From a virus (lineage: Duplodnaviria; Heunggongvirae; Uroviricota; Caudoviricetes): a DNA stretch of 5,324 nucleotides. Positions 3,001 to 5,324 of this stretch are shown here, piece after piece. The notes beneath the pieces are model-generated. The model did not search any database and was not told the origin of the DNA. It saw only the letters and a list, made by a program, of their open reading frames with translations. The stretch is taken from the IMG/VR virus record IMGVR_UViG_2667527595_000014; one strand, 5' to 3'. The position numbers and the translations under genes are program-made. The stretch's first letter is position 1; every line of letters begins with the position of its first letter.

Positions 3001-3016
3001 CGCCACCTTTACCCAC
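1..3016 (-). CDS. J: Tail tip central fiber / host specificity protein J (gpJ homologue), 3'-truncated by window edge; ~1005 N-terminal codons present
   Basis: Manual reverse-complement translation from GTG at 3016..3014 gives [52 protein letters not shown]..., which I recognise as the lambda gpJ N-terminus ([21 protein letters not shown]...). The frame stayed open and lambda-J-like through my read to position 2 (e.g. ...[39 protein letters not shown]..., ...[30 protein letters not shown]..., ...[13 protein letters not shown]...). Shine-Dalgarno-like AGGAGAGGGGG at 3022..3032 (minus), 5 nt upstream of GTG. Absent from the ORF track, presumably because no stop lies in the window. Position downstream of I matches lambda gene order. 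Confidence 0.92.
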
Positions 3017-3055
3017 TCTGTCCCCCTCTCCTGTCTGATGTCTGAATCTGTTTAT

Positions 3056-3090
3056 GCCCAAAAAACAACAGGCACCCCGGAGGGTGCCTG
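3056..3090 (-). terminator. Rho-independent terminator on minus strand, between the small ORF and J
   Basis: Perfect 9-bp GC-rich inverted repeat CAGGCACCC (3069..3077) / GGGTGCCTG (3082..3090) with a 4-nt loop. On the minus strand the stem is followed directly by TTGTTTTTTGGG (plus 3056..3068). Lies 2 nt after the stop of the 31-codon ORF and about 40 nt upstream of the J start. Confidence 0.6.
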
Positions 3091-3092
3091 CA

Positions 3093-3188
3093 TCATGACG
3101 GAATAAAAATTCTGAATATCTTCACATTTTCACAAACTGACTGTGGCGCGTATAATTTCGCTGCGTTAGTGTTTTTTTGCCGTGACAT
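3093..3188 (-). CDS. Hypothetical small protein, 31 aa ([31 protein letters not shown]), moron-like ORF in the I-J spacer
   Basis: ATG at 3188..3186, TGA at 3095..3093. Canonical SD AAGGAG (plus 3199..3204) 10 nt upstream of the ATG. Stop is followed at once by the minus-strand terminator. Too short for codon-usage judgement and no homologue recognised. Start and SD sit inside an inverted repeat (3166..3173 / 3205..3212). Confidence 0.3.
3129..3156 (+). promoter_or_regulatory. Candidate sigma70-type promoter on the plus strand (antisense to the tail operon)
   Basis: -35-like TTCACA (3129..3134), 16-nt spacer, consensus -10 TATAAT (3151..3156). Predicted transcription start about 3162..3164. 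Located in an AT-rich intergenic island, facing away from J and toward the plus-strand terminator at 3232..3270. Confidence 0.4.
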
Positions 3189-3268
3189 AAAAAAACAACT
3201 CCTTAACACTAATCTTCATTTGTCCGAATCTCCCGCAGCTCCGCGATCACTGCGGGATTTTTTATTCT
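3163..3268 (+). ncRNA. Candidate ~100-nt small RNA, cis-antisense to the SD and start codon of the 31-codon ORF and to the I-J spacer
   Basis: Bounded by the predicted promoter (3129..3156) and the plus-strand intrinsic terminator (3232..3270). Contains an internal imperfect hairpin: TTAGTGTT (3166..3173) pairs with AACACTAA (3205..3212), with T-run/A-run complementarity inside. No convincing plus-strand ORF; the track ORF 3169..3417 runs through the terminator hairpin and is antisense to gene I. Ends are predictions, not mapped. Confidence 0.3.
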
Positions 3269-3270
3269 TT
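3232..3270 (+). terminator. Rho-independent terminator on plus strand, abutting the stop codon of gene I
   Basis: Inverted repeat CCCGCAG (3232..3238) / CTGCGGG (3250..3256), extendable by a T:A pair at 3231/3257, with an 11-nt loop. Followed on the plus strand by ATTTTTTATTCTTTTT (3257..3272). On the minus strand there is no U-tract after the stem, so it is directional for plus-strand transcripts only. The loop is rather long, which lowers confidence. Confidence 0.5.
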
Positions 3271-3951
3271 TTACCCCTGCCGTCCGATAACCACCACTTT
3301 CCCGCCCCCGCCTTCATCACGGGTACTGATGTCCTGGGATATACGGCGGGAGCCAACCAGCATTTCCCCGTAAGGCACCGGCATCGGGTTACCCTGGGCA
3401 ATCATGTTGTCCAGTGACGAAAAGTACGTGTTCTGTCTGCCGTTATCCGTTGCGCGGTAATCCGGTGTTTTTGCCTTCGGGGCCAGCATCTGGGCCACAC
3501 CGCCCAGAATCATACTGGCACCCAGTGAAAACAGCATCGTGGTGGCAGAAAAACCACCGGCTGCCAGGGCTGAACCCCATAACGCCATTGATGCTCCGGC
3601 AGTGAAGAAAGACCCCACAATGGCAGCTGCCCCCAGCACAATCTGTAGTCCGCCCTTTCCGGCCCCGGCCAGTCGCGGCACAATATGGATAACCGTTCCC
3701 TCACCCAGTGGTTCGTGAAGGCGGGCATACACCGCCTCCGGTGCCGTATCCTCACCGGCAATGCGTATCTGGTACCAGCCTTCGTTCATCTGACGGCGAA
3801 AGCCCGGCACCTGCAGCGACAGGGCGCGGATGGCTTCCGCCGCCGTGTTCACATACAGGCTGAAGCGGCGGCCAAATCGTTGTAAATCCCCGTGAAGGCA
3901 GATGCGTGCCAGTGGCGGTGACGCCAGACAGAATGCGTTCGTCGTTGCCAT
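3271..3951 (-). CDS. I: Tail tip assembly protein I (gpI homologue), 226 aa
   Basis: ORF-track protein MATTNAFCLASPPLARICLHGDLQRFGRRF...GEMLVGSRRISQDISTRDEGGGGKVVVIGRQG is, by my recollection, closely similar to lambda gpI (223 aa), including the ARICLYGDLQRFGRR-type N-terminus and a Gly/Ala-rich hydrophobic central segment. ATG at 3951..3949, TAA at 3273..3271. Overlaps the 3' end of K by 103 nt out of frame, as in lambda. Confidence 0.92.
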   Translation of the reverse strand: MATTNAFCLASPPLARICLHGDLQRFGRRFSLYVNTAAEAIRALSLQVPGFRRQMNEGWYQIRIAGEDTAPEAVYARLHEPLGEGTVIHIVPRLAGAGKGGLQIVLGAAAIVGSFFTAGASMALWGSALAAGGFSATTMLFSLGASMILGGVAQMLAPKAKTPDYRATDNGRQNTYFSSLDNMIAQGNPMPVPYGEMLVGSRRISQDISTRDEGGGGKVVVIGRQG

Positions 3952-4602: not shown

Positions 4603-5301
4603 TTACTGCGAAAGTTTATTAATGGAAAGGAAACCGCCAAAATTGCCGACATTCCTGCGCAGTTCACACCCGCGCATGCACTTGCTGCATCTGTCCTTAC
4701 GGATATCCGTGGTGGGTTTATCGAACTCATCCGCCACAGCCCCGCCCGTGTAACCACACTCATCAGAGCGGTAGGTCCACATACAGGTGTTCGCCAGCAT
4801 GATACGACCGGGAAACAGCGCCCCGTCCGTCTCGGTCGGTGTGGCCAGCACAAACGAGGCCGTCATGGCTGTCAGCTGCGACATCTGCTCCACCACCCAG
4901 CGGTCACTCAGCTCCTGCTCCGGGTCCGCTTCCGGATTGCCCGCAACGAAATTCACCGCATCCAGAAAACGGGCATACACCCGGCGGCGGACCACCGTGG
5001 CCCCCACCAGGCTCTGCAAATCCTCCGCCATTCCGGTGACAAGACCAAACAGATTGGACACCGTCAGCAACGGTCTGGCACTGCTGCCCTTCCCGCTCAT
5101 CTCAAAACCGCTACCGTCAATCGGGTATGCCTGATATTGCCGCCCCTGCCAGGTGACCGGCTCCCCTTTTTCATTCAGCTCATTGCAGAAAAAATACCGC
5201 TCACCGCCCTGCACCGTCAGGTCGATTTCCCAGAGCACCACCCGCGGTGACTGCTCTGATTTAACCGACTCGTTCAGACTTTCTTCGTGAATATCCTGCA
5301 T
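4603..5301 (-). CDS. L: Tail tip protein L (gpL homologue), 232 aa
   Basis: Translation MQDIHEESLNESVKSEQSPRVVLWEIDLTVQGGERYFFCNELNEKGEPVTWQGRQYQ...NVGNFGGFLSINKLSQ is recognised as closely similar to lambda gpL, which I recall as 232 aa beginning MQDI. ATG at 5301..5299 chosen over the track's upstream ATG at 5313 because it matches the lambda N-terminus and length. TAA at 4605..4603. C-terminal Cys cluster (C173, C182, C205, C208, C212) present. Confidence 0.93.
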   Translation of the reverse strand: MQDIHEESLNESVKSEQSPRVVLWEIDLTVQGGERYFFCNELNEKGEPVTWQGRQYQAYPIDGSGFEMSGKGSSARPLLTVSNLFGLVTGMAEDLQSLVGATVVRRRVYARFLDAVNFVAGNPEADPEQELSDRWVVEQMSQLTAMTASFVLATPTETDGALFPGRIMLANTCMWTYRSDECGYTGGAVADEFDKPTTDIRKDRCSKCMRGCELRRNVGNFGGFLSINKLSQ

Positions 5302-5324
5302 ATATCCGCCCATAAAAAAGGGGC

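Follow-up and report, generated by a model that had tools for sequence, protein, structure and literature searches.

The 5,324-nt stretch of DNA analysed here (IMG/VR record IMGVR_UViG_2667527595_000014, hereafter the window) carries on its minus strand the tail genes L, K, I and J of a lambdoid prophage. The subject of this account is the spacer between I and J, the plus strand of which appears to encode a small regulatory RNA (sRNA). The following features frame it, with positions given in window coordinates.

3271..3951, minus strand: tail gene I, 226 amino acids, with its stop codon at 3271.
GTG start at 3016, minus strand: tail gene J, which runs off the left end of the window.
3017..3270, no strand assigned: I-J intergenic spacer, 254 nt and 43% GC, bounded by the I stop codon (3271) and the J GTG codon (3016).
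3100..3263, plus strand: putative inserted sRNA cassette comprising an upstream element, promoter(s), the sRNA and its terminator; the best conserved core of the spacer.
3179..3263, plus strand: predicted mature sRNA of the PasB/EcOnc22 family, ~85 nt, from homology and fold.
3231..3263, plus strand: intrinsic terminator of the sRNA, with arms TCCCGCAG (3231-3238) and CTGCGGGA (3250-3257), an 11-nt loop and a T6 run (U6 in the RNA) at 3258-3263.

A preliminary description of this DNA had put the I-J distance at about 250 nt against about 60 nt in lambda. The measured values agree, with 254 nt here and 60 nt in the lambda record (I end 15444, J start 15505), and the K/I overlap of 103 nt is the same as in lambda. 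The AT-richness that had been noted against GC-rich tail genes was likewise borne out: the GC fraction is 0.433 for the spacer and 0.396 for its inserted part (3100-3263), compared with 0.598 for I and 0.584 for J. Partial-spacer BLAST matches span query positions 84-247, corresponding to window 3100-3263. Distant I-J pairs of Enterobacter, Rahnella and Pantoea lie ~90-100 nt apart by their tblastn hit coordinates, a comparison of lengths only, in which the spacers were not inspected for the module. By comparison with lambda, the insert is placed between the I stop codon and an ancestral hairpin upstream of J. It has the marks of a moron, namely its own promoter and terminator, a lambda counterpart junction of only 60 nt, and a GC fraction of 0.40 within flanks of 0.58-0.60. 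The preliminary description had suspected a moron-like insertion with a prophage regulatory RNA, and homology to PasB and EcOnc22-24 supports it. Its placement of the module inside the tail operon holds for position, between I and J, but not for direction: the cassette is on the plus strand and so runs antisense to the tail genes. Taken alone, simple motif scans of the window were not above chance: promoter-like sites numbered 2, where shuffles gave 2.3 ± 1.5, and terminator-like sites 9, where shuffles gave 4.8 ± 1.9. The module is judged real because of its homology and conservation, not because of motif counts.

Judged by sequence similarity, the plus-strand unit is a homologue of the Hfq-dependent sRNAs PasB of enteropathogenic Escherichia coli (EPEC) and EcOnc22, EcOnc23 and EcOnc24 of enterohaemorrhagic E. 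coli (EHEC). PasB (pathogenicity-associated sRNA B) is an 83-nt RNA of prophage PP6 in EPEC E2348/69 (NC_011601 1466343..1466261; Pearl Mizrahi et al. 2021, PMC8550237), and its locus in that strain is the I-J spacer. Over the RNA, the window sequence shares 84% identity with PasB (83 nt) and 76% with EcOnc22; the spacer as compared with Sakai Sp15 gave an 81% match. The Northern probe used for PasB, AATCCCGCAGTGATCGCGGAGCT, is the exact reverse complement of window 3238-3260. For EHEC, Table S2 of Tree et al. 2014 (PMC4104026) lists homologous Hfq crosslinking (Hfq-CRAC) peaks as EcOnc22 (Sp15), EcOnc23 (Sp14) and EcOnc24 (Sp11), all on the plus strand. In the current record of Sakai (O157:H7), all three sites are I-J spacers. 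The RNase E-CLASH (crosslinking, ligation and sequencing of hybrids) table of Waters et al. 2017 (PMC5286369) prints EcOnc22/23/24 reads as GCCTGAAAAATAACTCCATAACGTTAATCTTCA, which is the plus strand of the Sakai I-J spacers and homologous to the window from 3179 onward.

Locating the EcOnc sites required a coordinate correction. Those of Table S2 in PMC4104026 belong to an older Sakai record and are offset by ~+137 to +140 nt from NC_002695.2, at least over 1.94-2.90 Mb. The offset was calibrated with AgvB1 as anchor (~+140) and then with the CLASH read sequences (+137). Taken uncorrected, the Tree et al. coordinates would equate EcOnc22-24 with the J-proximal hairpin, an assignment ruled out by the AgvB1 anchor and the CLASH reads. 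Other identities were also rejected. AgvB/AsxR are unrelated in sequence, sit downstream of PR' and gave no match through Rfam models RF02702 and RF02703, and HnrS (EcOnc10-12) is a different, 66-nt RNA. Rfam searched with the window at permissive thresholds (E <= 1) returned no relevant family, the only match being a chance small nucleolar RNA hit inside J. A literature keyword search for an sRNA among tail genes had no match.

Hfq binding, Hfq dependence and Northern detection have been published for both PasB and EcOnc22 (PMC8550237, PMC4104026). EcOnc22 ran at ~85 nt on Northern blots and was destabilised in delta-hfq (PMC4104026). PasB fell in delta-hfq with log2 fold changes of -6.8 and -2.4, took part in 37 interactions detected by RIL-seq (which ligates and sequences interacting RNAs), and was the second RNA in 99-100% of its chimeras (PMC8550237). 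For the homologues it is thus established that they bind Hfq, depend on it for stability, have the stated size and form chimeras with mRNAs, and we infer the same behaviour for the window copy. The element is accordingly already known: independent detections of its family date from 2014 (EHEC) and 2021 (EPEC), and a survey from 2026. Reviews and that survey (Zhu, Shabalina and Storz preprint, 10.64898/2026.05.13.724894) give the function of these RNAs as unknown. The EHEC homologues in Table S6 of PMC8550237 are of PasA and PasD only, the term 'EcOnc' is absent from the text of the 2026 preprint, and the link between PasB and EcOnc22-24 is drawn in neither publication.

With a probability of about 0.85, we take the spacer to hold a horizontally acquired antisense sRNA gene of the PasB/EcOnc22-24 family, whose product would be Hfq-bound and pair in trans. 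The cassette would have entered the lambdoid prophage between tail genes I and J by horizontal acquisition. In a lysogen the late operon is silent, and the cassette would be transcribed without it, from a sigma-70 promoter that it brings along. Transcription would probably start at G3179 from a TAGTGT -10 element, and cAMP-CRP may activate it from a site at -60.5. The predicted product is an ~85-nt RNA (3179-3263) whose 5' half is A-rich and unstructured; the seed (3197-3219) sits in the middle, and the RNA ends in a Rho-independent terminator and its U-tail. This RNA would bind Hfq, and its seed would base-pair in trans with host and virulence mRNAs.

Conservation was surveyed broadly. The BLASTN check advised in the preliminary description found the spacer in 147 phage records, nearly all of Shiga toxin-converting or other E. 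coli phages, and in ~1840-1890 of 5426 complete E. coli genomes (median 2 copies, maximum 11-13 per genome), set against the 60-nt junction of lambda. The ~250-nt spacer is therefore common, and it comes with conserved promoter and terminator signals, not devoid of them. From IMG/VR, modules were gathered in two independent ways, via the terminator and via the upstream element, yielding 180 instances and 103 unique sequences. Every module with both flanks visible (156/156) lies between I and J in antisense orientation; none was found elsewhere. Most loci hold one module (127), 5 hold two and 5 hold four head-to-tail modules with different bodies. The four-module arrays are, in our locus labels, L063:12150-13100, L042, L066, L089 and L134, and the two-module arrays L132, L143, L156, L192 and L210. 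Their spacers measure 418-926 nt. The upstream element recurs in every module, each of which has a terminator of its own; bodies and seeds differ. The single 1599-nt I-J spacer (L184, IMGVR_UViG_2534681940_000025) is explained by an IS3-family insertion, in which a transposase gene (MTKNTRFSPEVRQRAVRMV...) directly follows the promoter element and splits module u033.

The plus-strand intrinsic terminator named in the preliminary description is present at 3231-3263 and is widely kept: a terminator hairpin with adjoining T-run occurs in 64/66 unique modules found via the upstream element alone. Arm variants CCCACAG/CTGTGGG and CTCCCGT/ACGGGAG preserve pairing. When folded, the 85-nt RNA gave a near-unstructured A-rich 5' half followed by the terminator hairpin (z = -3.0), and the predicted architecture is how base-pairing sRNAs that depend on Hfq are usually built. 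When 33 diverse members were given to RNAalifold, no consensus structure emerged because the two terminator types misalign; per-sequence folds were used in its place.

Two promoter candidates precede the RNA.

3129..3156, plus strand: promoter candidate P1, TTCACA-16-TATAAT, 11/12 consensus positions.
3167..3172, plus strand: promoter candidate P2, -10 hexamer TAGTGT (TAnnnT), 10 nt downstream of the P1 hexamer, with putative start G3179.

P1 is the promoter proposed in the preliminary description; its 11/12 match was confirmed, and published 5' ends fit the more conserved P2 better. An nAnnnT hexamer at the P1 position is found in 94/103 unique modules, and P1 is near consensus in the window and PasB, with a poor -35 in most relatives (TTCCGG in Sp15). 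The P2 TAnnnT is kept in 102/103, and in the 5' third of an alignment of 33 members (A2) no columns but its T, A and T (T8, A9 and T13) are invariant. G3179 lies 7 nt downstream of the P2 -10 element and corresponds exactly to the 5' end that the EcOnc22/23/24 CLASH reads have in common; the annotated PasB 5' end is a T one base upstream of its equivalent (3178). An RNA from 3179 to the end of the U-run would be 85 nt long, where PasB has 83 nt and EcOnc22 ~85 nt. We lean towards P2 as the start of the mature RNA (G3179) because the TAnnnT conservation, the PasB/EcOnc 5' ends and the RNA length all fit. Alternatively, transcription would begin from P1 near 3163, giving a primary transcript of ~101 nt that is then processed. 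As side observations, one array module type has a degenerate P1 -10 (GTGCAT), and the T-run at 3172-3178 is T7 here, T6 in loci L062/L072 and T8 in phage PhiR12_1, shifting the discriminator length by one base.

Upstream of both promoters lies a candidate operator.

3111..3126, plus strand: imperfect palindrome TCTGA-N6-TCACA, 9/10 core bases of the CRP site TGTGA-N6-TCACA; TCACATTT fits the consensus flank (3111-3129).

This is the only window match to the CRP core with <=1 mismatch, at a chance expectation of 0.26. In all 31 modules retrieved via the terminator the half-sites are invariant, the N6 is variable and the distance to the -10 elements is fixed. Conserved half-sites around a free N6 suggest the trace expected of a dimeric regulator. 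The centre of the site lies at -60.5 from G3179 and at -44.5 from the P1 start. Class I CRP sites are classically centred at -61.5 (Busby and Ebright), and -44.5 is not an activating position. In EPEC data, overnight culture in lysogeny broth (LB) gives more PasB than the virulence-activating condition does; Spf, which CRP represses, is ~5-fold higher in the latter. This opposite pattern of PasB and Spf fits CRP activation. Control of the cassette by cAMP-CRP through the candidate site at 3111-3126 is a possibility that we hold tentatively and would not presume.

Several points weigh against this account. The expression evidence comes from homologues only and not from the window copy. EcOnc22-24 CLASH hybrids are low-count (PMC5286369), and validated targets are reported for no family member (reviews, 2026 survey). 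The PasB 5' end derives from RNA-seq coverage and Northern sizing, not from mapping based on terminator exonuclease (TEX), and could be a processing site (PMC8550237). The ATAAT of P1 is kept in 94/103 modules, which is unexplained if P2 alone is used. As to CRP, a like match arises in 49/200 shuffles, so that the site alone is not significant; its centre is 1 bp off the canonical -61.5 and its spacing from P1 is non-activating. Stationary phase explains the condition dependence of PasB equally well.

The part of the RNA that would contact targets was placed through PasB.

3197..3219, plus strand: putative seed region AACUCCUUAACACUAAUCUUCAU, conserved flanks with a variable core.

The partners of PasB in RIL-seq include E2348C_2648 (a Mu-like prophage gene), the napF 5' untranslated region (5'UTR), map, yhhX, hflX, fabR, bfpB, espC, cesD2, tolC and raiA (PMC8550237). 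Six PasB partner regions were tested for pairing with an ungapped helix score against shuffled sRNAs; RNAduplex was dropped, as it allowed huge loops and overstated energies. The best pairings fall on PasB nucleotides 20-40, and the seed was placed at window 3197-3219 for this reason, a location that in the window copy is presumptive. The napF 5'UTR forms a 16-nt pairing with PasB, CUUCACAUUGAUCUUC with GAAGGUCAAUGUGAAG, matched by 0.003 of shuffles. For fabR there are 11 perfect pairs (0.013 of shuffles as good), and for yhhX and map the pairings are near 0.05. By the same score and shuffle control, pairing of hflX and E2348C_2648 with PasB was not significant.

Across the family the seed block has fixed flanks (AAYUCC ... 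UAAUCUUC) around a variable core of 5-7 nt that exists in ~30 versions, of which the window version is a rare variant (6/180 instances). All four PasB pairings (napF, fabR, yhhX and map) are lost in the window RNA. Because three seed-core substitutions abolish them, the target set of the window copy probably differs from that of PasB. A pairing of the 5' GUUAGUG with the seed was also considered and rejected, being present only in the window-type copy and not conserved. The 3' end of 16S rRNA is ...CACCUCCUUA. The conserved left seed flank CUCCUUA (3200-3206) equals its last 7 nt, and a homologue (L179, module u029: ACCUCCUUA) agrees with the last 9 nt. This anti-Shine-Dalgarno-like CUCCUUA could favour pairing with strong ribosome-binding sites.

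The sense strand of the spacer carries two further features.

3058..3091, minus strand: hairpin and T-run just upstream of J, stem 3091..3068 then TGTTTTTT.
3093..3188, minus strand: open reading frame (ORF) of 31 codons, with Shine-Dalgarno (SD) sequence AAGGAG at 3199-3204, ATG at 3188 and its end at 3093.

The first had been described as a minus-strand intrinsic terminator of the module. It is present, but it is not part of the insert. The lambda I-J spacer (15445-15504; L140:746-805) has a GC-rich hairpin, AAACCGCC-TGCG-GGCGGTTTTG, followed by TTTTG, before the J ribosome-binding site. This lambda hairpin is a terminator-like element within the late operon, positionally equivalent to window 3091-3058. 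Because lambda has this counterpart before J, the minus-strand hairpin is considered an ancestral part of the I-J junction, outside the insert.

The ORF bears on what the functional product is. In place of an sRNA, the locus might yield a sense-strand small protein, either the 31-codon ORF or a 39-41-codon ancestor of it, expressed from the late transcript or from a promoter of its own, with the plus-strand signals secondary. The ORF and the consensus SD noted in the preliminary description do exist, AAGGAG and ATG being as reported, and one phage record annotates a hypothetical protein here. The 31 codons are the downstream part of a 39-41-codon frame, MKI(N/S)VKELF...NVKxFRxFIPS, which is out of frame in the window via the T7 run and intact in Sp15-, PasB- and L062-type copies despite indels between them. 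Coding constraint is where the claim fails. The longer frame is intact in only 16/103 unique modules, it flips in near-identical copies with T6 or T8, and abundant variants, u020 (14 instances) among them, have lost the start codon. Within the tandem arrays, inner modules have no such ORF. Variable columns are spread 13/15/14 over the codon positions, with no third-position excess, and the median nonsynonymous rate (dN) of 0.27 is close to the synonymous rate (dS) of 0.32. A motif scan of the window found no minus-strand promoter for it, and the peptide is not hydrophobic. The consensus SD has a simple origin, AAGGAG being the complement of the sRNA seed CUCCUU. The 31-codon ORF was thus rejected as a gene on conservation and dN/dS and is probably fortuitous; we regard a small protein as the functional product as very improbable. 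A type I toxin-antitoxin-like pair is a related idea: a gene for a small toxic peptide would have its SD and start covered by the antisense RNA. The plus-strand RNA does overlap the minus-strand ORF at its SD and start codon, and that overlap is the whole appeal of the idea. Against it, the 31-residue peptide lacks a hydrophobic helix, the ORF lacks conservation, the window scan found no promoter for it, and Rfam gave no match to Sok, Sib, Rdl or similar families. We give it almost no credence.

A role in cis deserves more thought. The RNA might act mainly on the late I-J mRNA to which it is perfectly complementary, through RNase III cleavage or transcription interference, and so tune J, the host-range protein, its trans effects being incidental. 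The site and the antisense orientation are fixed in all 156 loci, ~85-100 nt would overlap the late transcript upstream of the J leader, and in lytic growth the module and the late operon must be transcribed towards each other. Yet homologues are expressed and Hfq-loaded in uninduced lysogens, where the late operon is silent, and they form many chimeras with unlinked mRNAs. The duplex would also leave the J ribosome-binding site uncovered, beyond the sense-strand hairpin. Lambda and other relatives manage without the module, although distant spacers were judged by length only. A hypervariable seed core suits changing trans targets and is neutral for a cis antisense RNA. We consider a mainly cis-acting RNA quite unlikely, and a trans-acting, Hfq-bound sRNA remains the reading that we prefer.

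That sRNA reading can be extended, rather more speculatively, into a site-locked and tandemly amplifiable sRNA platform. Its scaffold, made up of the CRP-like operator at -60.5, the TAnnnT promoter, the A-rich Hfq-binding stretch, the seed flanks including CUCCUUA and the terminator, would be wired to host catabolite status. The hypervariable 5-7-nt seed core would retarget the RNA in each phage lineage, and an additional cis action on the I-J transcript at induction would couple host metabolism to J production. In this full form the proposal is rather unlikely, and we offer it as a framework only.

Some observations concern the surroundings of the locus and the sampled assemblies.

4603..5313, minus strand: tail gene L.

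In the window, L and K abut. The closest phage record, PhiR12_1 (L001:4621-5738), has two extra annotated genes just upstream of K, an antirepressor-like gene of 915 nt and a 141-nt ORF. This insertion looks like another moron site within the same tail module. A scan of genome contigs with protein I gave 12 loci; the contigs of several are assigned to organisms that are unrelated. Three (L007, L009 and L015) have E. coli-type I-J DNA at 91-98% protein identity on contigs filed as Streptomyces flavalbus, Parendozoicomonas haliclonae and a Clostridiales metagenome-assembled genome (MAG). In a fourth, from a 'Geobacteraceae' MAG (L011), the identity and coordinates of the I-J pair match Enterobacter loci (39-40% identity to I). 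All four are probably contamination or mis-binning in public assemblies.

As a discovery, the element matters little. What is new is the joining of the PasB and EcOnc22-24 names into one family with an exact I-J site. New leads are the tandem arrays, a better-supported start site, the candidate CRP operator, a mapped hypervariable seed and the rejection of the small ORF. The spacer occurs in about one in three complete E. coli genomes and is often multicopy there, and the window copy, as a rare seed variant, should have targets other than those of PasB.

Among known systems, PasB is the nearest. It shares with the window the antisense I-J spacer locus, the promoter region, an identical terminator stem and loop, the identical probe sequence, and an unstructured 5' half followed by the terminator. 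It differs by three seed-core substitutions (UUCACAUUGAUC in PasB, UUAACACUAAUC in the window), and indels separate the two RNAs within the A-rich 5' part and ahead of the terminator. EcOnc22-24 agree in locus, orientation, upstream element, TAnnnT, GCC 5' end, seed flanks and terminator arms, whereas their A-rich part is shorter, their seed core is AUAACGU and their P1 -35 is poor. The AgvB/AsxR anti-sRNAs and HnrS (EcOnc01-03 and EcOnc10-12) are likewise short, Hfq-binding, multicopy prophage moron sRNAs with a conserved scaffold and a variable seed. They lie, however, downstream of PR' and stx or at other late-gene positions, and have no sequence similarity to the window.

Tandemly duplicated sRNA genes are represented by OmrA/B, PrrF1/2 and Qrr. 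Relatives with 2 or 4 head-to-tail modules resemble them in combining the same promoter architecture with different seeds, while the window holds a single module. For PasA and PasD, the 2026 preprint (10.64898/2026.05.13.724894) describes copies acquired by separate phages, not tandem duplication. Lambdoid morons, as far as the account of Juhala et al. 2000 cited in PMC4104026 goes, are autonomous promoter-gene-terminator units of deviant composition between genes that are adjacent in relatives. The window cassette corresponds to that pattern, with the differences that its cargo would be an RNA instead of a protein and that the unit is antisense to the operon.

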